From NCBI GenBank assembly GCA_020348985.1, contig CP070761.1:1112921-1176920 (forward strand): DNA of 64,000 nt, written 5' to 3'. The stretch is from Candidatus Thorarchaeota archaeon (GTDB lineage: Archaea > Asgardarchaeota > Thorarchaeia > Thorarchaeales > Thorarchaeaceae). The translations under genes and the position numbers were made by a program. The notes below the pieces were generated by a model. That model did not search any database, was not told where the DNA came from, and saw only the letters and a program-made list of their open reading frames with translations. The number at the start of each line of letters is the position of its first letter. Within the stretch, counting starts at the first letter, position 1. Of this stretch, positions 20,685 through 43,581 are shown one piece after another.

Positions 20685-21677
20685 TTGTCAAGTTCATCGG
20701 GCGCGGCTCAGATAAGAGCACTAGCCGACGAAATCCTTCAAGAGGAGTCATTCCGGTTAGAAGGCCCAATTTGCCATGAATCAGTCTCATTGATTCCAAT
20801 TGTCACAACAGAGGAAGTAGGGAGCCAACCCAACTTCATGAACGCTGCCGAGGCGCTTTCCACGGGCGTACTGCAGATAATTGAAGGTGGAGACAGTGTA
20901 GAGCTCATTATAGCTCAAAACATGGGACAGATCCCTATCTTGATTGAAGAAGGAGAAGTTCTGAAAGCCGACGGCTCGCAGGACAGAATTGTCGTCACTA
21001 ACATCGTCATTCAGCCAGGCGACCGTATCAGAATCCCGGTCAAGTGTGTACATGCACCACATGCATTGCACGCCGGATCCAGATTCAGGTCAATTGGCGC
21101 TGGGTCGTACAATATGAGAGCTGGTCTCAAGCGTGCCAAGTATCAATCCATCATGACCGATGTTGAACACTATACGCCTGAACACGCCGTTGACCAAAGC
21201 GAAGTTTGGGAGAGCGCACGCCTAGAAGGTGTCGCAGCAGGGACAGCCGACCCAACAAAATACACTAAGGCTCTTGAGAAGCAGCGGAAGTCAGCTGAGA
21301 AGACCGCCAAGAAGTTCAGAAAAGAAATGCCAGAGAGGACATGTGGATTCATAGCGGTTGACAGCAAAGGCATTGTCCGCTCAATAGAGATCTACCGTTC
21401 TGCTCGTGCGTTCCAAGGACGGTCAGGTTTCATCGAGTCGCTCTTGATGGCATTCTCGAAGAAAGGGGAGAAGACCCAAGAGAACGAGGTGGCACTTTCG
21501 ACGGCTCTGCAGGTCTTGATGAAACTAAGGCGCATCTCAGATGAAACCGTGATTGTTCAGGAAGGTTCTGATAATCTACACATCCGAGTCGACGAATTGA
21601 CTGGCGAAGCCATAACCAGCAAGCAGCCTGACGGTACACACAGAGTCATTTATGCTTCACTGGGCACCACTGACTAG
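20685..21677 (+). CDS. Hypothetical protein
   Basis: The 330-aa ORF begins at a TTG, so the start is uncertain. It has no recognisable motif. Confidence 0.35.
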   Translation: MSSSSGAAQIRALADEILQEESFRLEGPICHESVSLIPIVTTEEVGSQPNFMNAAEALSTGVLQIIEGGDSVELIIAQNMGQIPILIEEGEVLKADGSQDRIVVTNIVIQPGDRIRIPVKCVHAPHALHAGSRFRSIGAGSYNMRAGLKRAKYQSIMTDVEHYTPEHAVDQSEVWESARLEGVAAGTADPTKYTKALEKQRKSAEKTAKKFRKEMPERTCGFIAVDSKGIVRSIEIYRSARAFQGRSGFIESLLMAFSKKGEKTQENEVALSTALQVLMKLRRISDETVIVQEGSDNLHIRVDELTGEAITSKQPDGTHRVIYASLGTTD

Positions 21678-24944: not shown

Positions 24945-25376
24945 TTAGGTGAGGCCTCTAAGCAATACTGCATCATCAGCGTGCTCAGATGCCAGATCCT
25001 CGAACTCGTATGATGCCTCTGGAAGAAAAGAGATCTTTGAGGCTGCTGCGGTAAAGAATTCCTTTAGGGTATCCTGAACAGCGGCAGCAATTCCAATCAA
25101 TGCAGAATCGTCTGCTTCAGGGGAGGCACCAGTCTTCAAAGGGAAGTCGTCACTATCCAATCCGGTAATGGGCTCAAGTATCATCTCAGTGACGTTTTCC
25201 CTGCGGACTCTCATCAAGTTCCGAATCCGTCTTTGTCCCTTCAGCATGATATCTTCGAAAACTGCCCTCGCATCCTGTCTAACAACTCTGTCAACTATTT
25301 CTTCGAAGAAAGCGCTCGACCTCTGTTCAATGTCAAGCGCATAACTGAGCACTGCTCCGAAAGTTCCAAGCTCCAT
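24945..25376 (-). CDS. Hypothetical protein
   Basis: The 143-aa acidic ORF has no recognisable motif. Confidence 0.3.
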   Translation of the reverse strand: MELGTFGAVLSYALDIEQRSSAFFEEIVDRVVRQDARAVFEDIMLKGQRRIRNLMRVRRENVTEMILEPITGLDSDDFPLKTGASPEADDSALIGIAAAVQDTLKEFFTAAASKISFLPEASYEFEDLASEHADDAVLLRGLT

Positions 25377-25569: not shown

Positions 25570-26427
25570 ATGAGTCCCATTGAGTTGTCAAGGGATACGA
25601 TAGTGCGGATTTCAGTCTTCATTGTAATCTACACACTATTTGGGCTGCTTATTCCAATTCAGGGATATGTTTCCATAAGTTTTGCAATTGGGACATTGAT
25701 TACAGCTGTCCTCTATGGCTTTGCTTTGTACTACATGAACACAAACATCCCATTGGGAAGAAAAGCCCGGATATTGATAACATGGATTGCTGTCTATGTA
25801 ATTCAGATGCTAAATCCAGTTCTAGAGGGCATCTTTTTCACAACTCAATTTGAGGGGCAACCAGAGTTAGCATTTGGAGCGGTTGTATTTGGACTCGTTC
25901 TTACTCTACCCACAGCTCTAGTATCAGGAGTTCTGTTCAGTCCAACGGGAGAGGTCACAAGCTTTGATCAACTTAGAAAGAAATACTTCATCGAATGGAC
26001 TTCCTCACAGTTTGCAGTACGGTTCATTATCGCATCTATGCTGTGGCTAGTCATATACTACACAATTGGAACTATCATTGCACCATTGGTACTTCCCTAT
26101 TATACTGATGGAGGTGTAGGCTACGACTTGACACTGCCTGCGGCTGAGATTGTAATACTTCTTCAGACCGTTCGAGGATTCATCTATGTCCTCAGTGTTT
26201 TCCCGATTGTCATCTCGGTGAAGCTAGATAAGAAACCGCTTGCAATCATATTGGTTGCACTTCTCTACATCGCAGGCGCGCTGGCCGTCTTTGTCATATC
26301 TGAGCAATTTCCAGTCTACCTACGATTTGTTCATGGAATTGAATTGTTTGTTGATTCATTGATTGCGGGTACAGTGATCTCCTTTATTCTAGGGAAATCT
26401 GACAAATCAATCCAAATCATCGATTGA
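25570..26427 (+). CDS. Integral membrane protein, unknown function
   Basis: The 285-aa ORF has about 8 hydrophobic helices. Confidence 0.4.
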   Translation: MSPIELSRDTIVRISVFIVIYTLFGLLIPIQGYVSISFAIGTLITAVLYGFALYYMNTNIPLGRKARILITWIAVYVIQMLNPVLEGIFFTTQFEGQPELAFGAVVFGLVLTLPTALVSGVLFSPTGEVTSFDQLRKKYFIEWTSSQFAVRFIIASMLWLVIYYTIGTIIAPLVLPYYTDGGVGYDLTLPAAEIVILLQTVRGFIYVLSVFPIVISVKLDKKPLAIILVALLYIAGALAVFVISEQFPVYLRFVHGIELFVDSLIAGTVISFILGKSDKSIQIID

Positions 26428-26578: not shown

Positions 26579-28042
26579 TCAGAACCACCTACTAATCACA
26601 ACTTTCGACTCGCAGAAGAAATCGACTGCATCCTGTCCCTGACCATGAAGGTCTCCGAAAAATGAGTCCTTCATTCCTGAGAATGGAAACGTGGCTATCG
26701 GTGCTGCAACTCCAATATTGATACCGATGTTTCCGGCCTTCACGCGGTACTGGTACTCTCTTGCAGTCTTCCCACTTGAAGTGAAAACTGAGGACGCATT
26801 TCCGTACCGGTTTGCGTGGATAATGTCAATGGCCTCATCCAAATCCTTGACCTGAATGATGTTGATTACTGGTCCGAAGATTTCCTCCTGGGCTATGTAC
26901 ATCTCCGGAGTGACCTTGTCAAAGATACATGGTCCAACGAAGTAGCCACTAGGATGTTCGGGAACCTCGATGCCACGACCATCAACGATTAGGTCTGCAC
27001 CTTCCTTCAGGCCTTCATCGATGCACTTGAGCACATGTTCCATCCCGCCTTTGGATGCCAGAGGCCCCATTTGCACACCCTCTTCTAGACCGTTCCCAAC
27101 CTTCAGTCTTTTTGCACCTTCAACTAGAGCCTGCTTGAGTGGCTCATGGATGTCGCCAACTGCCAGAATAACCCCTCCTGCAAGACATCTCTGACCTGTG
27201 CAGCCGTAGAAGGAAGTCAGAAGGGCGGCTACTGTGCTCTCTAGATTGCAGTCAGGCATAACGGTTAGGAAGTTCTTTGCTCCTGACTGTGACTGCGCCC
27301 TCTTGCCTTGCTCAGCGCATTTCTGGTAGAGAAGCTTTCCAACTCGAGTAGAACCCACAAAGGACATGCCAACCGTGTCAGGGCTCTCGATCATTGCATT
27401 TACTACTTCGGAACCGCCGTGAACAAGGTTCAGGACACCCTTTGGAAGACCGAGTTCGTCGATTATCTCAAACTGCTTCACCTGACTCAACGGGACCTGC
27501 GGCGAGGGCTTCACAATGTACGTGTTACCAGTACCAACTGCAAAAGGCCAGAACCATGTCGGCACCATTCCTGGGAAATTGAATGGTGCAACGCAGAAGA
27601 ATACGCCAAGTGGCTGCTTGATTACCATTTCATCGATTCCCGCAGCAATATCCTCAGTGTTGTATCCCATCTGAAGTGAAGGGATACTTGTTGCGCATTC
27701 AATATTCTCAATCGTCCTTCGGTACTCACCGCGCGCTTCGTCGATGATCTTCCCCTGCTCCATGGTAAGTATCTTCGACAGCTCCTCGAAATTGTCTTCG
27801 AAGGCAGCGCGTATTCTGTTTAGATGTCTAACACGCGTAAAGACAGGTGTCCTTCTCCACCGTTCAAATGCGGCCTTAGCGGCTGCTATTGCAGCTTCAG
27901 CTTCTTCAGCAGTAGACATGGGGGTCTTCGCAATGACTTCGCCGGTTGCAGGATTGAAAACATCTTGGGTCTTCTTGGACTTTGATTCAACCCAGCGCCC
28001 ATTGATGTAGTTTTTCACAACTTCTACGGTCACTATGGTCAC
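26579..28042 (-). CDS. mmsA: CoA-acylating methylmalonate/malonate-semialdehyde dehydrogenase (ALDH family)
   Basis: The N-terminus is 'VKNYINGRWVESKS...VFNPATGEVIAKTPMSTAEEAEAAIAAAKAAF'. The length and ALDH catalytic region ('FYGCTGQRCLAG') match MMSDH. Confidence 0.7.
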   Translation of the reverse strand: MTIVTVEVVKNYINGRWVESKSKKTQDVFNPATGEVIAKTPMSTAEEAEAAIAAAKAAFERWRRTPVFTRVRHLNRIRAAFEDNFEELSKILTMEQGKIIDEARGEYRRTIENIECATSIPSLQMGYNTEDIAAGIDEMVIKQPLGVFFCVAPFNFPGMVPTWFWPFAVGTGNTYIVKPSPQVPLSQVKQFEIIDELGLPKGVLNLVHGGSEVVNAMIESPDTVGMSFVGSTRVGKLLYQKCAEQGKRAQSQSGAKNFLTVMPDCNLESTVAALLTSFYGCTGQRCLAGGVILAVGDIHEPLKQALVEGAKRLKVGNGLEEGVQMGPLASKGGMEHVLKCIDEGLKEGADLIVDGRGIEVPEHPSGYFVGPCIFDKVTPEMYIAQEEIFGPVINIIQVKDLDEAIDIIHANRYGNASSVFTSSGKTAREYQYRVKAGNIGINIGVAAPIATFPFSGMKDSFFGDLHGQGQDAVDFFCESKVVISRWF

Positions 28043-28111
28043 TTCCGTTGAGGGAGAAGTGCTTCAGTGGTGCAGCTATTTGATTCTTATGCACTGTCAG
28101 GCTGCAACGTT

Positions 28112-29320
28112 TCATGATGTATGAACAAACTGGACAGCGTTGTCATCACAGACAATGGCGCACAGCCCGCATCCATCGCATTTCTCTGGATTGACAGTGG
28201 CAGTCCCATCTCTAATCTGAATGGCAACGTAGCCTCCATCGGCGCACGCAACTACACACTTCTTGCACGCGGTGCAGAGGTCACTTGAGACCTCAGCGAC
28301 AACTGGGGAGAGCTTGGATAACGCCTCCCATGTGATGATCTTGGGCAGCGCTTTACCCACGATTTCTTCCAGTGTTGAGTAACCCTTGCGGTCCATGAAC
28401 GAACTGAGATCTGATGTCATGCCTTTGATAATGCCAAACCCATACCACATGGCTGCCGTGCAAACCTGAAGCGTCTTGGCACCGGCCATTAGATACTCTG
28501 TGGCACTACGCCAGTCTTCGATTCCGCCGATGCCGGAGATGGGAATCTTTGGAAATGCACGTGCTATCTGTGAAACAAAGCGCAGACCTATTGGTCGAAT
28601 TGCAGGACCGCAGAACCCTCCATAGGTGCTGAGCTGCTCTTTCGGGTCAGCTCCATAAGCAATTGGATGCGGCGTTGCTGTCTCAACATCGATCCCCACC
28701 AATGACTCCACAGTATTAATCGCAGCTAGAGCATCGGCACCTCCATTCACCGCCGCTTCGGCTATAGGAACCATATCGGTGACGTTTGGTGTAAGCTTGA
28801 CCATCACAGGGAGATTGGTGCCCTTCTTTGCTCCACGTGTTACGGTTTCGACTAAGTCAGCGTTTTGACCAATGGCAGCTCCCATATGACGTTCTGGTGA
28901 TCCATGAGGGCAAGAGACATTCAGCTCAATTGCGTCCACTCCTGCATTTGTCATCTTCTTGGCCAAAGAGGTCCATCCTTCTGGTGCAGGGTCACTCATT
29001 ATACTAGCAACTATGACAAAATCTTCTGGTGCTTCTTTCTTGATCTTGGGGAGCCAATCGTCAGTCCAAGTTTCCAGTGAAGCCCTAGAGATTAGCTCAA
29101 TGTTGTTCATTCCAATCAAGTCTGGTCCCTTTCGCAGAGCGCCAAGCCGTGTTCTCGGGTCAACAGTTGGTGTTTCTGCAACAGTCTTGATTACAGCTCC
29201 CCCCCATCCAAGTTTCGCTGCACGAACTATGTGACGTGCATCCATTGTGGGGGGAGCTGATGAAAGCAAAAAGGGATTCTTGAAGCGAATTCCCGCAAAA
29301 TCAATCTCTAGCTGTTTCAT
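28112..29320 (-). CDS. preA: Dihydropyrimidine dehydrogenase PreA-like subunit (DHOD-family TIM barrel + 2x[4Fe-4S])
   Basis: The N-terminus 'MKQLEIDFAGIRFKNPFLLSSAPPT' is an FMN-barrel start. The C-terminus carries two ferredoxin motifs, 'CTACKKCVVAC' and 'CDGCGLCAIVCDDNAV'. Confidence 0.65.
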   Translation of the reverse strand: MKQLEIDFAGIRFKNPFLLSSAPPTMDARHIVRAAKLGWGGAVIKTVAETPTVDPRTRLGALRKGPDLIGMNNIELISRASLETWTDDWLPKIKKEAPEDFVIVASIMSDPAPEGWTSLAKKMTNAGVDAIELNVSCPHGSPERHMGAAIGQNADLVETVTRGAKKGTNLPVMVKLTPNVTDMVPIAEAAVNGGADALAAINTVESLVGIDVETATPHPIAYGADPKEQLSTYGGFCGPAIRPIGLRFVSQIARAFPKIPISGIGGIEDWRSATEYLMAGAKTLQVCTAAMWYGFGIIKGMTSDLSSFMDRKGYSTLEEIVGKALPKIITWEALSKLSPVVAEVSSDLCTACKKCVVACADGGYVAIQIRDGTATVNPEKCDGCGLCAIVCDDNAVQFVHTS

Positions 29321-29406
29321 TCATACTCCATCCTTTCAGCAATCAGAGGCACAAGGCAGCCTTCCCCTAAAGTCTTTAGGCCAGTGTTTGCATTCAGACT
29401 TCGCGT

Positions 29407-30756
29407 TTGGTGAGGATAATGACAGACGATTTGGTGCCTGAAGAACTAAGAAAAGCTTACACAGACAAGGAGATACTTGCCATAGAGAAGAAGCACCTGG
29501 TGCCCGCAGTTGGGCACTACTATGAAGACCCGATTCTGTTCGTGAAAGGAAAGGGAGCAGTCCTCGAAGACAGTGCTGGAAAAGAATACATTGACTTATT
29601 CGCAGGTATCTGCACAACCATAACAGGATATTCACATCCCAAGTTTGTTGCAACGATCAAGTGGCAAGCTGAGCAGCTTGTCTACACAAGCTCACTTTAC
29701 TCAACGATTCCATACGCACTTCTCATCAAGAAACTGGCTGAGATTGCTCCGGCTGGTCTTACGCAGTCTTACATTGTGAACAGTGGATCTGAGGCAAATG
29801 AGCATGCGCTCTTCATGGCTAGGAAGTACAAGCAAAACCCCTATGTTGTCGCCTGTCACCATGCATATCATGGCAGGACTACATTGGCACGTGAGATAAC
29901 GACAGCAGGCTGGCGCACCGTACCCGAAGCACATCCTCCTGGCGTTCGTTTTGCTCCTAACGGCTACTGTTATCGCTGTCAATTTGGAAAGGAGTTCCCA
30001 GAGTGTGACTTTGAGTGTGCGCGCTACTTGCGGGAAATAATCCGGACTGAGACCAATAGGGCCATTGCAGCTTTCATCGCAGAGCCGATTCAGGGTGTTG
30101 GAGGCATAGTACAGCCTCCTTCCGATTACTTCAAGATAGTGCACGAGATTGTAAAGGACTTTGATGGCCTTTTCATATCAGATGAAGTCCAGACAGGTTT
30201 CGGGCGAACGGGCGAGAAATGGTGGGGCATTGAGCACTCTGGCGTGGAACCAGACGTCGTGACAATGGCCAAGGGCTTTGGAAGCGGCATTCCCATCGGG
30301 GGCTTCATGACTCGTCCCGAGATTGCAGAAGATTACACAATGACTGACAGCTTTGCTACTTTCGGTGGCAATCCTTTGTCGTGTGCGGCGGCATTGGCTG
30401 TCATTGAAATCATAGAGGAGAGCAACTACGTCGAGAGAGCTACCAGGAATGGGGGCCACTTCAAGAAAGAATTGGAGGCACTCAAGGAGGACCATCGCTT
30501 GATTGGTGATGTCCGCGGACAGGGCATGATGTTGGGAATAGAGCTTGTTCGAGATAGGACCACCAAGGAGCCTGCTTCTGAAGAAATGGTCAAGCTCATG
30601 GAACTCTGTAAGGAAGATGGCCTACTCATCGGTAAGGGGGGTTTTGATGGCAATGTAATCCGCCTTCAGCCACCTCTGGAGTTGACAACAGAACAGATTG
30701 ACAAAGCTTGCGAGATAATTGACAAGTCCCTTGCAGAGATTGAGAAGTCTATATGA
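29407..30756 (+). CDS. Class III (omega) aminotransferase, beta-alanine / 4-aminobutyrate type
   Basis: The ORF has the AT-III fold, including 'FISDEVQTGFGRTGEKWW' around the PLP lysine region. Confidence 0.7.
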   Translation: MVRIMTDDLVPEELRKAYTDKEILAIEKKHLVPAVGHYYEDPILFVKGKGAVLEDSAGKEYIDLFAGICTTITGYSHPKFVATIKWQAEQLVYTSSLYSTIPYALLIKKLAEIAPAGLTQSYIVNSGSEANEHALFMARKYKQNPYVVACHHAYHGRTTLAREITTAGWRTVPEAHPPGVRFAPNGYCYRCQFGKEFPECDFECARYLREIIRTETNRAIAAFIAEPIQGVGGIVQPPSDYFKIVHEIVKDFDGLFISDEVQTGFGRTGEKWWGIEHSGVEPDVVTMAKGFGSGIPIGGFMTRPEIAEDYTMTDSFATFGGNPLSCAAALAVIEIIEESNYVERATRNGGHFKKELEALKEDHRLIGDVRGQGMMLGIELVRDRTTKEPASEEMVKLMELCKEDGLLIGKGGFDGNVIRLQPPLELTTEQIDKACEIIDKSLAEIEKSI

Positions 30757-30787
30757 AAGACTTGTCAGTTGATGGATTGGCGGCCAC

Positions 30788-31114
30788 TCATATTTGGGCG
30801 GCCTTCGAAGACTGACTAGACCTCTTTCTAAGCATCTGGAAGAATGTGAGCAGTACGAAGGTAACAGCTGACCATACAAGCAAGTCCAAGAGCAACCCGA
30901 TTACCAAGAGGGTCATTGGACCAGCCCCAGGATAAACGAACTGCGCCAGCCAGGGGAATGGATATCCATACGACGACATGCCTAGCAACGTCATATTTGG
31001 CAGAAATCCCGATACCAGAGTTATTGCAGATCCCCCAAAAAGAGAGTACGCCGCTTTCCGACTGAGTGCCATGGATGGTGGCTGCGGAGTTTCACCAAAT
31101 GTCATCGCAATCAC
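30788..31114 (-). CDS. Small membrane protein
   Basis: The 108-aa ORF has two hydrophobic helices. It lies in an otherwise 490-bp gap. Confidence 0.3.
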   Translation of the reverse strand: MIAMTFGETPQPPSMALSRKAAYSLFGGSAITLVSGFLPNMTLLGMSSYGYPFPWLAQFVYPGAGPMTLLVIGLLLDLLVWSAVTFVLLTFFQMLRKRSSQSSKAAQI

Positions 31115-31246
31115 CAGAAGTTTGCTCTATTAGTTATATCAGAAACTGAACTAACTAATTTTTCGGTGCCAGGACACTCCGCAGGTCCAGTGAGACGGCA
31201 TATGGCCGTCCTGAATGGGATGGAGTCTTATTTGTGGGGCATTCGT

Positions 31247-32113
31247 CTAGAGATCAATGAGCTCATCATATGTTTCCGGTCGTCTGTCACGGTAGAATTG
31301 CCAGACATTTCGGACTTCACGAATCATATCCAGGTCGATTTCTGCAACGACCACTTCTTCCTTATCTCGAGAACCTTGAGTGACTATCTGTCCTCGTGGA
31401 TCCACTACGTAGCTTGAGCCATAGAATATCCCAGTCCCCCATGGCTCTTCACCAACTCTGTTTGTTGCACCAAGGAAGTAACCGTTTGCGACGGCATGAG
31501 CTGGTTGTTCAAGCGTCCAGAGATGTTCCGATAGGCCCGCAACGGTCGCGGACGGATTAAAGACAATCTCAGCACCATTCAGGCCCAAAGCTCGTGCCCC
31601 CTCTGGGAAGTGTCTATCATAGCAGATATACACCCCAATGTTTCCAAACTCAGTCTCAAACACTGGGTACCCAAGATTTCCGGGGCGGAAGTAGAATTTC
31701 TCCCAGAAACCGGGATCCAGATGCGGTATGTGGTTCTTTCTGTACCTTCCCAGTATAGAGCCGTCTGTCCCGAAGACTACTGCGGTATTGTAGTAGACTC
31801 CAACCTCTTCCTCCTCGTACATGGGGGCAATCAGGACCATCCCGTGCTGTTTCGCCAGTCTACCCATCCTATCAGTCAAAGGACCAGGAATAGGTTCTGC
31901 ATACTTGTACCATCGACGATCTTGCTCAGCGCAGTAGTAGGGGCCGAAGAATAGCTCTTGGAAGCAGAGAATCTGAACGTCCTGCTGTTCGGCGACTGTA
32001 GCAAAGCCCTCATGCTTCCGAATCATCTTCTCAATGTTTTCTTCAATATCCTTCTCTGTTTCAACACTGCCTTCCCATTCAGCCTGAACTAGACCTACAC
32101 GAACCTTCCTCAT
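31247..32113 (-). CDS. Beta-ureidopropionase / N-carbamoyl-amino-acid amidohydrolase (nitrilase/CN-hydrolase superfamily)
   Basis: 'MRKVRVGLVQ' at the likely true start is typical of CN-hydrolases. The Cys-Glu-Lys triad context is present. The track ORF has a spurious 27-codon N-terminal extension. Confidence 0.65.
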   Translation of the reverse strand: MRKVRVGLVQAEWEGSVETEKDIEENIEKMIRKHEGFATVAEQQDVQILCFQELFFGPYYCAEQDRRWYKYAEPIPGPLTDRMGRLAKQHGMVLIAPMYEEEEVGVYYNTAVVFGTDGSILGRYRKNHIPHLDPGFWEKFYFRPGNLGYPVFETEFGNIGVYICYDRHFPEGARALGLNGAEIVFNPSATVAGLSEHLWTLEQPAHAVANGYFLGATNRVGEEPWGTGIFYGSSYVVDPRGQIVTQGSRDKEEVVVAEIDLDMIREVRNVWQFYRDRRPETYDELIDL

Positions 32114-32233
32114 CGACTTCAACTCCGTTGAACGGTGCCTTGACCCATTTAGGAGCCGTCTATTAGGCCTTTTCCCCAGCCGCTCCCAAACCATTTATGG
32201 CAGCATTGCCTGGGGAGGAGGGAGGCCGCTCTC

Positions 32234-33625
32234 GTGACAGATTATGACATAATTATCAAGAACGGATTGGTTGTCACTGACACAGATCAGAAGGATGTTG
32301 ATGTTGCTGTCAAGGATGGTAAGATTGCAGCAGTCGAAAAGAAGCTAGACGGTGGTTCAGCAACGGATGTGATTGATGCCAAGGGAATGTACGTCTTCCC
32401 TGGCGGGATTGATGTCCACGTACACTTCCAATTGCCGTTCTCTGGAACGGTATCTGCAGACGACTTCGAGAACGGCACAAAAGCAGCAGCTTGCGGAGGC
32501 GTAACAACCGTTCTCGACTTTGCGATTCAGACGAAGGGCGAGTCAATTATGAAAGCGGTTGAAGCACGACGTGCTGAAGCAGACCCCAACGTCTGCGTTG
32601 ACTACGGACTGCACGCGGCTATTACTGATTGGAATGAGCAAACACAAGCCGAAATCAAGGAAGTAATTGATTATGGAATTCCCACTTTCAAGATGTTCAT
32701 GATCTACAAGAATGAAGGCTGGATGGCCGATGATGGAATGCTGTTCCAGGCTCTTGAAGAGACCGCGAAGCACGGGGGGCACATTGGAGTCCATGCGGAG
32801 AGTGTCTTTGTCCTTGACATGTTGATAGAAAGATATGCTCAGGAGAAGGAGAAGTGGGGAGCCTACGGTCATGCATTATCTAGACCATGCTATACTGAAG
32901 AGGAGGCCATTATTAGGGCTATCAAGTGGGCCGAAGTCACTGGAGGGCAGTTGTACATCGTCCACATGTCTACTGGCGAAGGAGCAGACGCTGTGAAGGC
33001 TGCCAGAGAAAAGGGTGTTAGAGTCTTTGCCGAGACCTGTCCTCAATACCTGCTTCTGGATGATGAGGTCTTCAAAGGTGAGAATGGTCATCTGTACGCA
33101 ACTTGTCCTCAAATCAAGAAACCTCATGATAGCGTTCGCCTTTGGGAGGGGCTCAAGAATGGAGAGGTACAGATCGTTGCGACTGATACCTGTACATTCA
33201 ACACAGAACAGAAGGCGGCTTGGAATGGCGATTTCACAAAGATTCCATTCGGAATGCCTGGCGTGGAGACAATGGTTCCACTGATGCATACGGAGGGCGT
33301 TGGCAAGCATGGCCTATCGCTGAGTCAGCTAGTGGCATTGGTAAGCACAAATCCAGCTAAGCTGTTTGGCATGTATCCCGAGAAGGGAGCCCTAGAAGTG
33401 GGCAGCGATGCGGACATAGTGGTCTTCGATCCCAAGAAGAAAGTTACAATCAAGGCTGAGAACCTTCAGACAAATTGCGACTGGAGCCCATTCGAGGACT
33501 GGAAGCTCGAGGGCTACCCGGCTACAACCATCTCGCGTGGCAAGGTTGTCGCAGAGGATGGCAAGTTTGTTGGAGAAATGGGTCACGGTCGTTTCTTGAA
33601 GAGGAAACCATACGGCAAGCTCTAG
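32234..33625 (+). CDS. Dihydropyrimidinase / D-hydantoinase (cyclic amidohydrolase)
   Basis: 'DYDIIIKNGLVV...GGIDVHVHFQLPF' is the DHPase/hydantoinase N-terminal and HxH motif. The start is GTG, preceded by a GGAGGAGGGAGG Shine-Dalgarno. Confidence 0.7.
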   Translation: MTDYDIIIKNGLVVTDTDQKDVDVAVKDGKIAAVEKKLDGGSATDVIDAKGMYVFPGGIDVHVHFQLPFSGTVSADDFENGTKAAACGGVTTVLDFAIQTKGESIMKAVEARRAEADPNVCVDYGLHAAITDWNEQTQAEIKEVIDYGIPTFKMFMIYKNEGWMADDGMLFQALEETAKHGGHIGVHAESVFVLDMLIERYAQEKEKWGAYGHALSRPCYTEEEAIIRAIKWAEVTGGQLYIVHMSTGEGADAVKAAREKGVRVFAETCPQYLLLDDEVFKGENGHLYATCPQIKKPHDSVRLWEGLKNGEVQIVATDTCTFNTEQKAAWNGDFTKIPFGMPGVETMVPLMHTEGVGKHGLSLSQLVALVSTNPAKLFGMYPEKGALEVGSDADIVVFDPKKKVTIKAENLQTNCDWSPFEDWKLEGYPATTISRGKVVAEDGKFVGEMGHGRFLKRKPYGKL

Positions 33626-33626
33626 G

Positions 33627-34136
33627 TCAATCTTCTTCGCCAATGTCCTCGTTCCACAGCGTAGGATTGGCTTCAATGAAGTCGGTCATCATCTTAATGC
33701 ACTCTTTGTCCTGAAGTATGACTAGTTCGACTCCACGGTTACGAACGAAGTCCTCAGGACCTTGGAAGGTCATGTTTTCGCCAACCACGACTTTGCGGAT
33801 CCCATAGAGGAGGACTGCTCCGCTACACATGTCACACGGCGACAGCGTGGAGTAAAGTGTGGCTCTTTGATACTCTGAAGCCGTCAAACGGCCGGCATTT
33901 TCCAGAGCGTCCATCTCTGCATGAAGAATAACGCTACCCTTCTGTATTCTTTGGTTATGGCCGCGGCCTACAATCTTCCCATCAATAACAAGAACCGATC
34001 CTATTGGAATGCCCCCATCTTCGAGTCCTTTCTTCGCTTCAGCAATTGCTGCTGCCATGTAGAACCGAGTCTTGGCTTCTGGTGAGGATATCCTCAACGG
34101 TTCCTTCTTCGGCATTACGTTTCCCTCCAACAACAT
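33627..34136 (-). CDS. CDA-fold zinc deaminase (cytosine / nucleoside deaminase-like)
   Basis: The ORF carries 'HAEMDALENAG' and 'SPCDMCSGAVLLYGI', the H(A/C)E...PCxxC zinc-binding motifs. Confidence 0.6.
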   Translation of the reverse strand: MLLEGNVMPKKEPLRISSPEAKTRFYMAAAIAEAKKGLEDGGIPIGSVLVIDGKIVGRGHNQRIQKGSVILHAEMDALENAGRLTASEYQRATLYSTLSPCDMCSGAVLLYGIRKVVVGENMTFQGPEDFVRNRGVELVILQDKECIKMMTDFIEANPTLWNEDIGEED

Positions 34137-34244: not shown

Positions 34245-35525
34245 CTAGTCGTAGCCAAGAGGGGGAACTCTGGCCAGCCAATTCATGAAATAGGCGATGG
34301 CGACTGAAACAACAAGACCGATTGTAGCTGTAATCAGCAGATCAATCCAGCTTGGGATTGCACCGCTCAGAATCTGCATCCAGCTCCAGTAGGTCCCTGA
34401 CAAGGTCATTCCTGCGAATGCGACCTTCATGAGGGGAACCTTGACGCTCTTGGTCTGGAAGATTCCCATATCGGTCATAGCAGCTGCAAGGGCTCCACCC
34501 TTGTTCGGCTTGAGCTTCAACTTCTTGGAGAACTTCCCAACTGGCATCTTGGACTTGGGTCTCATTACTTTCATTGCTTTTGGCGCATAGTCTGCTATGT
34601 CCTGTGAGAAATATGCGACTGCGGCAGAACTTTCGATTTTGCATTTCGAACAGTTTGGAGCGTCGACCTTCCACTTCTTGCCGCACTTGGGACAACGTTT
34701 TCCGTCCCAGGCCTTCCCGGCCGCTTCAGAGACTCTTCGTTTGAGCTCTTCTTTGTCTACGCTCTCTTGGTCCTTCTTCCTCCTGGGCCTCCTTCTGAGA
34801 ACTACCGCTCTTGGGAATATGCCAACATCTGAGCCTCGCTTCGCGCCCCTCATTTTGCGCGCGGCAAGTATTCCCTGCTGGAAATCATCCATAGCCATCA
34901 AGAGACCGAAGACTGACATCACGGTGAAACCAAGAGTGATGAGCCCGGTCACAGACATGATTGCGGCGGGACCTGTGGGACCGACTTGGAGTACAAAGTC
35001 CTCAGTCACCGTAACGTTTGTGTCTGGGTCTGTCAAGAGCGAGTAAGTGAAGGAGAAGACTCCTGTGACAGTACCTGAGAACAGACTTAGACCGCCAACC
35101 CCCAGTATTGTCCCGATGTCCAGCGATTCGTTAAGCAGGTCGGCGCTGAAACCTGAGGGGAGGAAGGTATTGATGTCAAACGGCTGATTGATGATTGGAA
35201 TGGATAAGTATGACATCGTAAATAGTCCTGAGTGAAGCGTAAGGTTCTCTATGACATTTATGCTCAGTTCAATTGCTAGTGCCGTACTAAGATCAACCGG
35301 GATTGGACTGCTCAAATTGGAATGGTAAGCGGAGACATTATTTACTTCAACTAAGAAATGGAAGTTGTCATCTCCACTCCAACCTGTAGGCGGCAAAGAC
35401 TGTACTGGCACCAAGATAAATGACCAAAGTAGACCCGTAATCATCAGAAGTGATAGTAGCTCTGGTAGCGACCGTTTCATCTTGTGGCGACTCTCCCGTT
35501 TGGAGCGTTCATTGAACTGAAGCAT
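34245..35525 (-). CDS. Membrane protein with an extracellular domain and a cytoplasmic zinc-ribbon
   Basis: The protein has a signal peptide, then a TM, then a basic cytoplasmic segment with 'CPKCGKKWKVDAPNCSKC', then C-terminal TM helices. Confidence 0.4.
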   Translation of the reverse strand: MLQFNERSKRESRHKMKRSLPELLSLLMITGLLWSFILVPVQSLPPTGWSGDDNFHFLVEVNNVSAYHSNLSSPIPVDLSTALAIELSINVIENLTLHSGLFTMSYLSIPIINQPFDINTFLPSGFSADLLNESLDIGTILGVGGLSLFSGTVTGVFSFTYSLLTDPDTNVTVTEDFVLQVGPTGPAAIMSVTGLITLGFTVMSVFGLLMAMDDFQQGILAARKMRGAKRGSDVGIFPRAVVLRRRPRRKKDQESVDKEELKRRVSEAAGKAWDGKRCPKCGKKWKVDAPNCSKCKIESSAAVAYFSQDIADYAPKAMKVMRPKSKMPVGKFSKKLKLKPNKGGALAAAMTDMGIFQTKSVKVPLMKVAFAGMTLSGTYWSWMQILSGAIPSWIDLLITATIGLVVSVAIAYFMNWLARVPPLGYD

Positions 35526-36891: not shown

Positions 36892-38157
36892 CTAGTCGCT
36901 CTTCGGATAGTACTTCGCCGGATCCTCAGAGTAGACTTTCTCTATAGTCTTATGTGCTCCAGGTGTGTCCAATTCCACATCGCGCTTCAGGGAGCGATCT
37001 TCACCAAGAACTTCCTTGAAGATTTCATTCTGGATTATCAGCCGCTGTACTTCATTGCTGCCGGTCCAGATTGTTGACAGACGTGCATCGCGATATAGTC
37101 GTTCGATTGGATAGACGTCGGTGTATCCAATCCCCCCTAGAATCTGCATTGACTCGTGTACCGACTTGAAACCTGCTTCAGTACCATATGCCTTTGCCAT
37201 GGAGACTTCTTTCCTGCACCATGTCCCAGTATCAGCCACCTTAGCAGCTCGATACACCAGACCCCTCGCAGCATCCAACTCCATTTGACAGTCGGCTACC
37301 TTGAAGCTGATTCCTTCGAATCTACGGATGGGTCTGCCAAAAGCTTCCCTCTTGTCAGCGTATCTTATTGCTATATCCAGTGCCACTTGACCCATTCCAA
37401 TGCATCCTGCAGCAGAAGTCAAGCGTTCCGGAACCATCATTGCATTGAAGACATCATTTCCTCCATGAAGCTTGCCGAGAAGGTTTGACTCTGGAATTTC
37501 AGTGTTTTCCATTACGATTCTTGCGGCCCCCATTCCACGACAGCCCAACAATTCATACTCTTCCTCAACACGGACTCCGTGGTCTCTGTCTACGAGGAAT
37601 GCACTAAGTGATTCGTGAGGCTTGGCGTCGAAGCTAGTCTTGGCATAGACGAGAAAGTAGTCGGCACCCACACCGCCTGCTACGAAACGCTTCTCACCAT
37701 TTAGAATGTAACTGTCGCCTTCTTTGATTGCAGTGGTGATTGTGCCAAAGAAATCCGATCCGCTGCGAGGCTCGGTAAGACCCTCGCCGCCTATTTTCTC
37801 TCCTTTTAGAGTTGACAGGAGATAGTTTCGCTTTTGCTCTTCTGTGCCAAACTTCTCTATTCCCTCTCCGACGATGCTGGGTAGTGAATATGCACAGCCA
37901 AGTGCGATACCCAGAACACCGATTTCCTCTATGGCCGCCATCTCTGAAACCCATCCCAGGCCACGCCCACCATACTTCTTCGGAAACCTGAGTCCCAGCA
38001 GATTCTCGGCACTTGCGGATTTCACAAACTCATACGGATACTCCTTTTCCCTCGAGTCCATCTTGAGAATGAGATTACGGTCAACTTTGTCCCGGACAAA
38101 CGCACGTACCTCGTCTCGAATCTTCTTCTCCTCCTCGCTTAGTAGAATCTCGAACAT
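36892..38157 (-). CDS. Acyl-CoA dehydrogenase
   Basis: The C-terminus carries the ACAD motif 'GGIGYTDVYPIERLYRDARLSTIWTGSNEVQR'. Confidence 0.7.
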   Translation of the reverse strand: MFEILLSEEEKKIRDEVRAFVRDKVDRNLILKMDSREKEYPYEFVKSASAENLLGLRFPKKYGGRGLGWVSEMAAIEEIGVLGIALGCAYSLPSIVGEGIEKFGTEEQKRNYLLSTLKGEKIGGEGLTEPRSGSDFFGTITTAIKEGDSYILNGEKRFVAGGVGADYFLVYAKTSFDAKPHESLSAFLVDRDHGVRVEEEYELLGCRGMGAARIVMENTEIPESNLLGKLHGGNDVFNAMMVPERLTSAAGCIGMGQVALDIAIRYADKREAFGRPIRRFEGISFKVADCQMELDAARGLVYRAAKVADTGTWCRKEVSMAKAYGTEAGFKSVHESMQILGGIGYTDVYPIERLYRDARLSTIWTGSNEVQRLIIQNEIFKEVLGEDRSLKRDVELDTPGAHKTIEKVYSEDPAKYYPKSD

Positions 38158-38180: not shown

Positions 38181-38573
38181 TTACTCGCTTCGTAATAAAG
38201 AATCCAGGGTTTCTTGTGAGCCGCCATCTCGAGATACTAGGATAGCCTCAGTAGGACATACTAACTCGCAAACCATGCAGAATATGCAGTCTCTCTCGCC
38301 TGATGGATCAACAACCTCAGTTTCGAGGTCTGAGACCCATTTGGTGAACACAATCGTCGGGCATGCATCTACGCACTTCATGCATCCTACGCATGATTCA
38401 ATGTGTACAGCAACAAGCTCTCCGTGAATCGTCCCGTCGTGCTCACTTTCAGACTTCCAGACCGAGTGTCCTTCATGGCTGCCTCTCTTGGACCATCTAG
38501 ATCTGAAATGCTTGTCAATTGGCACAAGTCCTGAAGGTGCTCTGTCCTTAAAGAGTGTCACCACAGGATGCAC
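38181..38573 (-). CDS. 4Fe-4S ferredoxin-domain protein
   Basis: The ORF has 'CVGCMKCVDACP' and 'CIFCMVCELVCP' cluster motifs. Confidence 0.55.
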   Translation of the reverse strand: MHPVVTLFKDRAPSGLVPIDKHFRSRWSKRGSHEGHSVWKSESEHDGTIHGELVAVHIESCVGCMKCVDACPTIVFTKWVSDLETEVVDPSGERDCIFCMVCELVCPTEAILVSRDGGSQETLDSLLRSE

Positions 38574-41643: not shown

Positions 41644-42135
41644 ATGGACGAAATCTACATCAGGTATTGGACAACAACAGGACGCGAGAGAATCGAGCCC
41701 TATATGACCAATAGGACAGAAATAAGTCTCGAGTATCGCGACATAGCCGCCATAGACATATTGCCTCTGGTATGGTGCAAGGGTCTGCGCCTACTAAGCC
41801 TCAGAGGAAATCATCTAGCAAACTTGGATTTGATGTCTTTGGCCAGCTGCCCGAATCTCGAGATGTTGAAGCTGAGCTACAACAAACTTCAGGCAATTGA
41901 CCTTACACCACTTGGCCAGTGCACGAATCTGAAGGAATTGTCCCTAGAAAGGAATAGATTCACCTCACTGGATCTTTCCCCACTGTTTGAGTGTCCAAGA
42001 CTTGTTGACCTTGGAATGGACGATTCGATCGAGTTGACGGCCGATTTGATGTTGAGATCAGTCGGAAATTGGCCGGATGTGTTGGTTAACAGATTCTACA
42101 AGATCAAGTGGGAAGTTCCGGCGTACCTCGGCTGA
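41644..42135 (+). CDS. Leucine-rich repeat protein
   Basis: The ORF has tandem LxxLxLxxNxL units, including 'LRLLSLRGNHLANLDL', 'LEMLKLSYNKLQAIDL' and 'LKELSLERNRFTSLDL'. Confidence 0.55.
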   Translation: MDEIYIRYWTTTGRERIEPYMTNRTEISLEYRDIAAIDILPLVWCKGLRLLSLRGNHLANLDLMSLASCPNLEMLKLSYNKLQAIDLTPLGQCTNLKELSLERNRFTSLDLSPLFECPRLVDLGMDDSIELTADLMLRSVGNWPDVLVNRFYKIKWEVPAYLG

Positions 42136-42216: not shown

Positions 42217-43581
42217 ATGCAGGTTAGGGATACACTCTGCAACCCAGAGAAGTGCAGCGGAGATTGTCTTGATGCTTGCAAGCATGTTCATGGCGAGGAT
42301 TCACCCCTCGGATTCTCAAGGGAGGCCCGCAGACCAATTATCAATCTCAACACTTGTACTGAATGCCTGGCCTGTTTGAGAGAGTGTCCATTTGATGCAA
42401 TCGTGATAGCTACATCATCGGGAGAAAAGTCACGCCAGTCGCCTTTTGCTCTCGTATCAACTAGGGATGCATCAACTGTTAGACCGTACGAAGTATCAGA
42501 TGACTATCAGAGATTTCCAGAGATTGATGTAATCTTCGCTAGAGTCTATCACGATCCGGATTTCAGCCATTACACGCGTGGCATCTACTCGGATGCTCGT
42601 AGGATGATAGACAAGCGAATTCCCGGCTATGGCCGTGCTGACTTCGAACTGGGGGCGAGTACTTGGAAACTTTACGACAATAGAAAGCAAGCGTCTGAAA
42701 CCTATGACTGGCAAAAGACTCCCGCCCTGAGATCAAAGCCCTCCAAGCCAGACAGGAGGAAACTCACAAAACGAATCAAACGTGCGGCAAAGTTCCTTGG
42801 TGCAGCACTTATTGGCGTAGCAGATCTGGATAGAAGATGGATTTACTCAACTAGTATTGAGGGAGACGAGTATATCTTCCCGGAAGGAATCAATCGTGCG
42901 ATAGTTGTTGCCATCGAGATGGACTATGATCTAATAGATACATCACCTGCATATCCTGCAGCGGTAGCTACAGCAAGGGGCTACTCGCAGATGGCGTATA
43001 TTGAGATTCATCTTGCTGAATTCATCCAAAGGATGGGATATCGGGCAATTTCGTGCGGCAACAATGTCGCATTAAGTGTCCCGCTTGCGATAGATGCTGG
43101 ACTCGGTCAATACGGGAGACATGGCATTCTAATCACGAAGGAGTATGGGCCCCGGGTTCGAATCGCGAAGATACTGACCGACATGCCGCTCATTCCCGAC
43201 AGACCAGATGCTGAGTTTTGTAAGTCGGTTGTGGAGTTCTGCAAGGCCTGTGAGAAATGCGCAATAACGTGTCCTTCTCAGTCTATTCCATACGGCATAG
43301 ATAGGACATGGAAGGGCATGACCAAGTCGAACAATCCGGGAGTCAAGAAGTGGTTCGTGGAACCTGAGACCTGTTATGCATTTTGGGTGCAGAATGGTAA
43401 TGATTGTTCGAACTGTATAAGATCATGTCCGTATAACAAACCGAATAACCTGCTGCATAAGTTCACATTATGGGTTATTCAGCACATGCCTTGGCTGAAC
43501 AGATTTGTAGTCATGATGGATTACCTATTTGGCTTTGGAAGACAGAGGAACCCACAAACAGTTTGGGCAAAGCATGATTAG
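42217..43581 (+). CDS. Reductive-dehalogenase-like (RdhA/QueG-family) iron-sulfur protein with an extra N-terminal ferredoxin-like Cys cluster
   Basis: 'GRHGILITKEYGPRVRIAKILTDMPL' is followed by 'CKACEKCAITCP' and 'CSNCIRSCPYN', the RdhA-type cluster motifs. The N-terminus has additional 'CTECLACLRECP' motifs. Confidence 0.45.
   Translation: MQVRDTLCNPEKCSGDCLDACKHVHGEDSPLGFSREARRPIINLNTCTECLACLRECPFDAIVIATSSGEKSRQSPFALVSTRDASTVRPYEVSDDYQRFPEIDVIFARVYHDPDFSHYTRGIYSDARRMIDKRIPGYGRADFELGASTWKLYDNRKQASETYDWQKTPALRSKPSKPDRRKLTKRIKRAAKFLGAALIGVADLDRRWIYSTSIEGDEYIFPEGINRAIVVAIEMDYDLIDTSPAYPAAVATARGYSQMAYIEIHLAEFIQRMGYRAISCGNNVALSVPLAIDAGLGQYGRHGILITKEYGPRVRIAKILTDMPLIPDRPDAEFCKSVVEFCKACEKCAITCPSQSIPYGIDRTWKGMTKSNNPGVKKWFVEPETCYAFWVQNGNDCSNCIRSCPYNKPNNLLHKFTLWVIQHMPWLNRFVVMMDYLFGFGRQRNPQTVWAKHD

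Follow-up and report, generated by a model that had tools for sequence, protein, structure and literature searches.

A predicted reductive pyrimidine degradation cluster of Thorarchaeota encodes a PreA-type dihydropyrimidine dehydrogenase subunit with no PreT found nearby

Ferredoxin-dependent reduction of uracil has been described for PydAc, an enzyme of the Clostridium chromiireducens reductive pyrimidine degradation (Pyd) cluster, which accepts electrons from reduced ferredoxin or methyl viologen and not from NAD(P)H (Wang et al. 2020, PMC7332683). PydAc has no flavin adenine dinucleotide (FAD) or NADPH domain and keeps both ferredoxin domains, giving a theoretical 16 Fe per monomer (PMC7332683). 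The PreT-PreA pair of E. coli is cited in the same paper as an NAD-dependent dihydropyrimidine dehydrogenase (DPD) (Hidese et al. 2011), and a survey restricted to bacteria recorded a Pyr_redox_2 protein in the adjacent open reading frame (ORF) for 2781 of 3419 PydA (about 81%) and fused to PydA in 29 (PMC7332683). The same authors also cite Zhu et al. (2020) for an extended Pyd pathway of Bacillus megaterium that leads from uracil to acetyl-CoA, and Yin et al. (2019) for an extension to malonate semialdehyde by a beta-alanine aminotransferase in Bacillus smithii; a PydAc-like enzyme, UacX, has been proposed to act in reductive urate degradation (PMC12507026). Here we analyze a 64-kb stretch of Thorarchaeota DNA from contig CP070761.1 (hereafter the window), in which positions 26579–34136 hold a predicted Pyd cluster leading from cytosine, uracil or thymine to acyl-CoA, with a PreA-type DPD subunit and no PreT.

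On balance we favor the reading that this PreA represents a minimal Asgard DPD, composed of a flavin mononucleotide (FMN) barrel and a C-terminal di-cluster domain, which would be fed by a soluble carrier, most likely ferredoxin. Earlier papers have described both the pathway chemistry and the principle of ferredoxin dependence, and the gain is incremental; what is new is the Asgard archaeal host, the further-reduced two-cluster architecture and an associated ferritin-like gene. Full-text literature searches gave no relevant paper in which DPD or dihydropyrimidinase is connected with Thorarchaeota or Asgard archaea.

The PreA homolog and the search for its electron-input partner

The gene for the PreA-type DPD catalytic subunit lies at 28112–29320 on the minus strand, and its product scored 450 bits against model NF006183 (cut-off 335). 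The product is 100% identical to a protein from a metagenome-assembled genome of Candidatus Thorarchaeota, an uncultured organism, which places the window in the Asgard archaea and not in the bacteria. Asgard PreA has 402 aa and consists of an FMN TIM-barrel and one C-terminal 2x[4Fe-4S] ferredoxin domain; a Pfam scan revealed no Fer4_20, FAD or NAD(P)H domain, and the chain begins 3 residues before the barrel. The two 4Fe-4S clusters that the original prediction had ascribed to PreA were confirmed as two CxxCxxCxxxC motifs (C349/352/355/359 and C381/384/387/391), which supply eight cluster cysteines, hence two clusters per chain, and are both invariant or nearly so among 114 relatives.

The protein is 40% identical to E. 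coli PreA, and its PDB matches gave 258 bits to pig DPD (residues 533–847 and 911–997), compared with 115 bits to dihydroorotate dehydrogenase (DHOD) B. Residues N73, N134, S136, C137, N202 and T203 align with N609, N668, S670, C671, N736 and T737 of pig DPD, which we take to be the uracil-binding residues and the catalytic acid (Cys671), as assigned in the pig structure papers. The class-1B DHOD models stayed under their cut-offs (NF005574, 202 versus 269; TIGR01037, 199 versus 270), and Pfam scans of the window turned up no PyrK-like gene. The AlphaFold2 model, with a predicted local distance difference test (pLDDT) score of 95.4, superposed on pig DPD with template modeling (TM) scores of 0.87–0.91 and on DHOD B with 0.69. 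A grouping with DHOD had been named beforehand as grounds for abandoning the assignment; family models, PDB matches and the superposition all fall on the DPD side, and the PreA homolog, as judged from sequence and model, belongs with DPD and not with DHOD or Dus.

The absence of PreT from the cluster, already noted in the original prediction, was extended by tblastn. In the window, the best match of an E. coli PreT probe (from NC_000913, in which the preT and preA genes overlap within one operon) had E = 2 or worse. Among species-representative genomes, a scan located 23 Asgard loci with a PreA ortholog (67–78% identity), to which exact-protein look-ups added more, and the wider search covered the window and 26 Asgard loci (367 kb) at a threshold of E ≤ 0.1. 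Within this scope no match was obtained with E. coli PreT, with the PreT portions of P0244 and P0252, the closest two of the fused relatives, with three PydAc-type Fdx1 (Fer4_20) domains, with the CoxM-like FAD domain from the C-terminus of P0243, or with EtfA/B probes. As a positive control, the E. coli PreT probe picked up the PreT portion of a related PreT-PreA fusion in locus L074 with E 7e-78. Of this genome, the search for PreT covered 64 kb of a 3.16-Mb contig. This PreA and its Asgard orthologs, which number in the hundreds, carry in NCBI and JGI the name ‘NAD-dependent dihydropyrimidine dehydrogenase subunit PreA’; wherever a search nearby found no PreT, that NAD dependence lacks support.

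An exhaustive search of 50%-identity representatives returned 8343 matches, in which the Asgard clade forms one representative (66% identity) and the next best match is 49% identical. A set of 114 near-full-length sequences, drawn from the matches listed with the addition of nine Asgard sequences and E. coli PreA, comprised 81 PreA-only proteins, 22 PreT fusions, 9 proteins with N-terminal extensions of at least 60 aa and 2 with C-terminal extensions. The N-terminal extensions include PydAc-like Fdx1 fusions of about 500 aa (Fer4_20 was confirmed in P0255), and these PydAc-type relatives are about 40–42% identical to Asgard PreA. In a neighbor-joining tree calculated without bootstrap, the Asgard PreA clade was monophyletic, and its sister group had two members: P0243 (L064, 2741–4831), in which PreA is fused to a CoxM-like FAD domain (FAD_binding_5 and CO_deh_flav_C), and P0245 (L066, 1789–3132), which is encoded divergently from etfAB. 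We found no description of either arrangement in the DPD papers covered here. Another relative, P0246 (45% identical), lies on a bacterial-looking contig (L073) with genes for an M20 peptidase, dihydropyrimidinase, aminotransferase and Fe-ADH and with no PreT; in L074, a ureidopropionase and an aminotransferase that are 64% and 51% identical to those of the window stand beside the fused PreT-PreA. These arrangements, together with the PreT fusions, reveal that the PreA module is combined with several electron-input modules in nature and that pyd clusters with PreA alone also exist outside the Asgard archaea. A special affinity of Asgard PreA to eukaryotic DPD was considered and rejected, since its distance to a 1019-aa fused DPD representative equals that to E. 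coli PreA.

Gene content and conservation of the predicted Pyd cluster

ORF listing, Pfam and NCBIfam recovered all six genes named in the original prediction. The identities given below rest on family models, and the order of reactions is taken from the established pathway. The route would begin with a cytosine deaminase of the yeast Fcy1 type and cytidine deaminase (CDA) fold (33627–34136, minus strand; Pfam dCMP_cyt_deam_1), predicted to convert cytosine to uracil. Its best solved-structure matches are yeast cytosine deaminases (E 5.5e-44, 153 bits) over residues 27–167, including the C-terminal helix, compared with at most 80 bits for TadA and tRNA adenosine deaminases; the true start is probably near ORF codon 27. 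PreA would then reduce uracil or thymine at its FMN site; the original prediction had worded this step as dihydrouracil to uracil, which is reversed, as the catabolic direction is uracil to dihydrouracil.

The ring of dihydrouracil or dihydrothymine would be opened by a dihydropyrimidinase of the D-hydantoinase family (32234–33625, plus strand), which scored 484 bits against TIGR02033 (cut-off 393) and up to 388 bits against PDB D-hydantoinases and dihydropyrimidinases, and which is 79–84% identical among Asgard loci. Its gene adjoins, in divergent orientation and within the same cluster as the DPD module, that of a nitrilase-superfamily protein (31247–32194, minus strand; Pfam CN_hydrolase). 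The latter is a predicted beta-ureidopropionase of the animal type, known from fly and human structures, which would release NH3, CO2 and beta-alanine from N-carbamoyl-beta-alanine, or give beta-aminoisobutyrate in the thymine branch. Among PDB entries it matched Drosophila and human beta-ureidopropionase with 202–204 bits, N-carbamoylputrescine amidase with 187 and D-carbamoylase with at most 103, and against the AguB NCBIfam model it reached 238 bits, under the cut-off of 410.

Divergent from PreA, a class-III (omega) aminotransferase is encoded at 29407–30756 on the plus strand (Pfam Aminotran_3, 332 bits). In the PDB it is closest to human ethanolamine-phosphate phospho-lyase (255 bits), with GABA transaminases next; the human enzyme is a paralogue, within the AGXT2 family, of the beta-alanine/beta-aminoisobutyrate transaminase AGXT2. 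From its conserved gene position and context we infer that it converts beta-alanine or beta-aminoisobutyrate to malonate or methylmalonate semialdehyde. The last step, which would yield acetyl-CoA or propionyl-CoA, is assigned to a CoA-acylating malonate/methylmalonate-semialdehyde dehydrogenase (MMSDH; 26579–28042, minus strand), with 513 bits against TIGR01722 (cut-off 448.5) and 420–447 bits against PDB MMSDHs, including 447 bits for the B. subtilis enzyme and 423 bits for the mitochondrial one. A small ORF in the gap between the aminotransferase and ureidopropionase genes (30788–31114) was rejected as a cluster gene, as it is hydrophobic, contains no cysteines and is not conserved.

The gene order and strand pattern, namely deaminase (+), dihydropyrimidinase (−), ureidopropionase (+), aminotransferase (−), PreA (+) and MMSDH (+), was repeated in about 20 other Asgard loci, most of those compared; because of this repetition the cluster is not a chance grouping. 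The deaminase gene stays beside the dihydropyrimidinase gene in Asgard loci, and in most of them the MMSDH gene is directly downstream of PreA. The conserved unit also includes a seventh gene, encoding a ferritin-like protein of 143 aa (24945–25376, minus strand in the window), whose position is kept across Asgard loci, and the seven-gene order is common to loci named Thorarchaeota, Hermodarchaeota and Promethearchaeota. The original prediction of a reductive pyrimidine catabolic cluster was thus upheld by family-model identities and conserved gene order, except that the set it called near-complete is counted here as complete from the free base onward, with the seventh gene added.

The closest relatives (L006, L007 and L009; PreA 77–78% identical) depart from this order and have methyltransferase and PadR genes after PreA instead of MMSDH. 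In L006 a gene for a 1001-aa AAA/TPR protein is inserted between the aminotransferase and PreA genes, and in L009 PreA lies apart from all other pyd genes. The neighbors of these detached PreA genes were considered as redox partners and rejected, as they are methyltransferases, PadR and alkaline phosphatase instead.

Candidate electron donors and neighboring genes

In the favored mechanism, in which a soluble low-potential carrier, most likely ferredoxin, supplies PreA, the two [4Fe-4S] clusters would take up single electrons from this carrier and not from NAD(P)H via PreT; without PreT, the distal C-terminal cluster of Asgard PreA should be exposed. The reading draws on clostridial PydAc, which works in this way with one ferredoxin domain more. 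A real partner would normally be linked, since most bacterial PydA have Pyr_redox_2 in the adjacent ORF (PMC7332683). Many oxidoreductases that reduce ferredoxin (POR, KOR, VOR, IOR and AOR) are encoded in Hermodarchaeota genomes, a feature set called similar to that of other Asgard archaea (PMC8163825). The suggestion of a ferredoxin donor in the original prediction therefore stands as the best reading on the precedent of PydAc (PMC7332683), while the dependence itself is carried over from that precedent and the idea is less novel than had been assumed.

Several points weigh against this reading. The case for the Asgard enzymes consists of sequence and predicted-structure comparison; the part of the contig covered leaves room for an unlinked PreT or GltD-like partner; and PydAc, the only characterized ferredoxin-dependent DPD, keeps an N-terminal Fdx1 domain that Asgard PreA does not have. 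In addition, the NCBI equivalog model carries an NAD-dependent PreA name, the Asgard loci compared contain no conserved ferredoxin gene in the cluster, and the substrate of the aminotransferase was assigned from context.

A conventional NAD(P)H-dependent heterotetramer, with a PreT- or GltD-like flavoprotein encoded elsewhere in the genome, would agree with the passing of the PreA equivalog model, with the use of a fused PreT-PreA in L074 next to a 64%-identical ureidopropionase, and with the small part of the genome that the search reached. We regard this as unlikely, though it deserves consideration, because the seven-gene synteny is tightly kept without PreT, no PreT-like sequence was present in the window or the 367 kb of Asgard loci with a probe proven by L074, and the partner is adjacent in the great majority of bacterial PydA (PMC7332683). 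The sister group of Asgard PreA, with its CoxM-like fusion (P0243) and divergent etfAB (P0245), raises the further idea that PreA is served by another unlinked flavoprotein module, for example an electron-transfer flavoprotein (ETF) or a CoxM-like FAD protein. This appears improbable, as the window and the Asgard loci yielded no ETF or CoxM-like sequence, the sister relationship comes from a distance tree without bootstrap, and these relatives are 42–46% identical.

The original prediction also offered hydantoins as substrates, with the dihydropyrimidinase and the CN-hydrolase acting as a hydantoinase/carbamoylase system for 5-substituted hydantoins. Dihydropyrimidinases and D-hydantoinases are indeed one family, the top PDB matches of the dihydropyrimidinase are named D-hydantoinase, and D-carbamoylases are CN-hydrolases. 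Nevertheless, the CN-hydrolase scored 204 bits against beta-ureidopropionases versus 103 against D-carbamoylases, and the pair is always clustered with the cytosine deaminase, the DPD subunit, the omega-aminotransferase and MMSDH, four genes that fit only pyrimidine catabolism and have no role in hydantoin conversion; Pfam scans of the neighboring genes turned up no hydantoin racemase or permease. The chance that the pair serves hydantoins is accordingly very slight.

Another candidate for the missing partner is the ferritin-like protein, which might serve PreA structurally, as a subunit, or carry electrons or metal for it. In at least 13 Asgard loci its gene is the next one after MMSDH (12 nt apart in L069 and L070). 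In most loci it shares the strand of PreA-MMSDH and follows that pair with no gene in between, and in L024 it comes directly after PreA. All named members of the family, which counts 432 proteins, are Asgard, as is the orphan PreA clade, and the family alignment contains an invariant RRENxTEMILEPI motif and several invariant glutamates. The same alignment shows neither Cys nor a conserved His nor ExxH motifs, which leaves the protein with no obvious redox centre. The AlphaFold2 model is a four-helix bundle (pLDDT 95.4), for which Foldseek returned weak Dps/ferritin-like matches (best E 3.6e-3, TM about 0.7) and none to DPD domain I; Pfam gave no match for the window protein, and Ferritin_2 was weakly matched by 20 of 28 family members. 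Moreover, the gene is absent downstream of PreA in L003, L006, L007 and L009, and the L024 copy is without the motif. A role as the partner thus has little probability, and the narrower candidates of an Fe-S or di-iron carrier and of a DPD domain I remnant were rejected on the missing Cys/His/ExxH motifs and the weak, Dps-like Foldseek matches.

In the window the ferritin-like gene is cut off from MMSDH by a multi-pass membrane ORF on the opposite strand (25570–26427, plus strand; 285 aa, hydrophobic throughout). This ORF had no Pfam match even at E 10 and no tblastn counterpart in the 26 Asgard loci; judged by these comparisons it is specific to this genome and outside the conserved unit, and it could be a permease or a mere insertion. 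On the other side, the gene next to the cytosine deaminase (34245–35525, minus strand) encodes a membrane protein of 426 aa whose central CxxC...CxxC segment resembles a zinc ribbon; Pfam gave it no significant match, and the other Asgard loci have no counterpart.

A 2x[4Fe-4S] ferredoxin-like ORF (38181–38573, minus strand) is followed directly by an acyl-CoA dehydrogenase gene (36892–38157, minus strand; AcrC-like, with a score under the model cut-off). A corresponding pair is found 5 kb from PreA in the Thorarchaeota locus L024 (6393–6737 and 6787–8052) and in none of the other Asgard loci. The ferredoxin ORF was rejected as a dedicated donor, since it is paired with the acyl-CoA dehydrogenase and not with the pyd genes and is near PreA in one other locus only. 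Genes unlinked to the pyd cluster are those for a reductive-dehalogenase-like Fe-S protein (42217–43581, plus strand; weak match), a small leucine-rich-repeat protein (41644–42135, plus strand) and an ARPP-1 domain protein (20685–21677, plus strand). Asgard genomes are reported to contain reductive dehalogenases (PMC8163825).

Implications and comparison with known systems

If the favored reading of a ferredoxin-fed Asgard PreA is true, ferredoxin-linked pyrimidine catabolism extends from Clostridia to Asgard archaea, the smallest DPD architecture is an FMN barrel with one di-cluster domain, and the NAD-dependent names are over-specific for hundreds of archaeal proteins. The cluster suggests that sediment Thorarchaeota can draw nitrogen and acetyl-CoA from nucleobases of extracellular nucleic acids, and it draws attention to a conserved protein tied to the pyrimidine pathway, all named examples of which come from Asgard archaea. 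A more far-reaching version is a minimal DPD class, in which a two-cluster PreA homodimer is reduced directly by ferredoxin with the ferritin-like protein as a dedicated accessory subunit, and in which the cluster might bear on the origin of eukaryotic pyrimidine catabolism, because the best solved-structure matches of three enzymes are eukaryotic (Fcy1, UPB1 and an AGXT2-family protein); for the dehydrogenase, too, the score of the mitochondrial MMSDH is not far below that of the best bacterial match. We consider this version speculative and doubtful.

Comparison with pig DPD (PDB 1GTE/1H7W) revealed that Asgard PreA matches domains IV–V, with the substrate residues, the Cys671 equivalent and the cluster cysteines kept, whereas domains I–III (N-terminal FeS, FAD and NADPH) and the 848–910 insertion are absent. 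In the pig enzyme, the C-terminal clusters are placed between FMN and the N-terminal clusters that belong to the partner chain. E. coli PreA has the same domain composition as Asgard PreA, which passes the PreA equivalog model; however, E. coli preA overlaps preT and E. coli has no other pyd genes, whereas the Asgard locus contains the full pyd pathway and no PreT in 64 kb. The extended Pyd pathways of Bacillus share their chemistry with the Asgard cluster (DPD, dihydropyrimidinase, ureidopropionase, beta-alanine aminotransferase and malonate-semialdehyde dehydrogenase), but those Bacillus PydA are listed with a Pyr_redox_2 protein in the adjacent ORF (PMC7332683), a partner that the Asgard cluster does not have, and the latter adds a yeast-type cytosine deaminase and the ferritin-like gene. 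The Asgard beta-ureidopropionase is of the nitrilase type, whereas an M20 peptidase holds that place in the bacterial-looking PreA-only cluster L073.

The nearest parallel in electron input is PydAc. Both enzymes combine an FMN barrel with a C-terminal two-cluster domain, both occur in Pyd clusters, that of PydAc belonging to a strict anaerobe, and Asgard PreA likewise has no FAD or NAD(P)H domains and no Pyr_redox_2 neighbor. They differ in that PydAc, from a clostridial host, carries an N-terminal Fdx1 (Fer4_20) domain and four clusters in about 500 aa, whereas Asgard PreA, from an archaeal host, has 402 aa and two clusters, with no separate Fdx1-like ORF found in the window and the 26 loci; for the archaeal enzyme, ferredoxin dependence is what the likeness to PydAc suggests.

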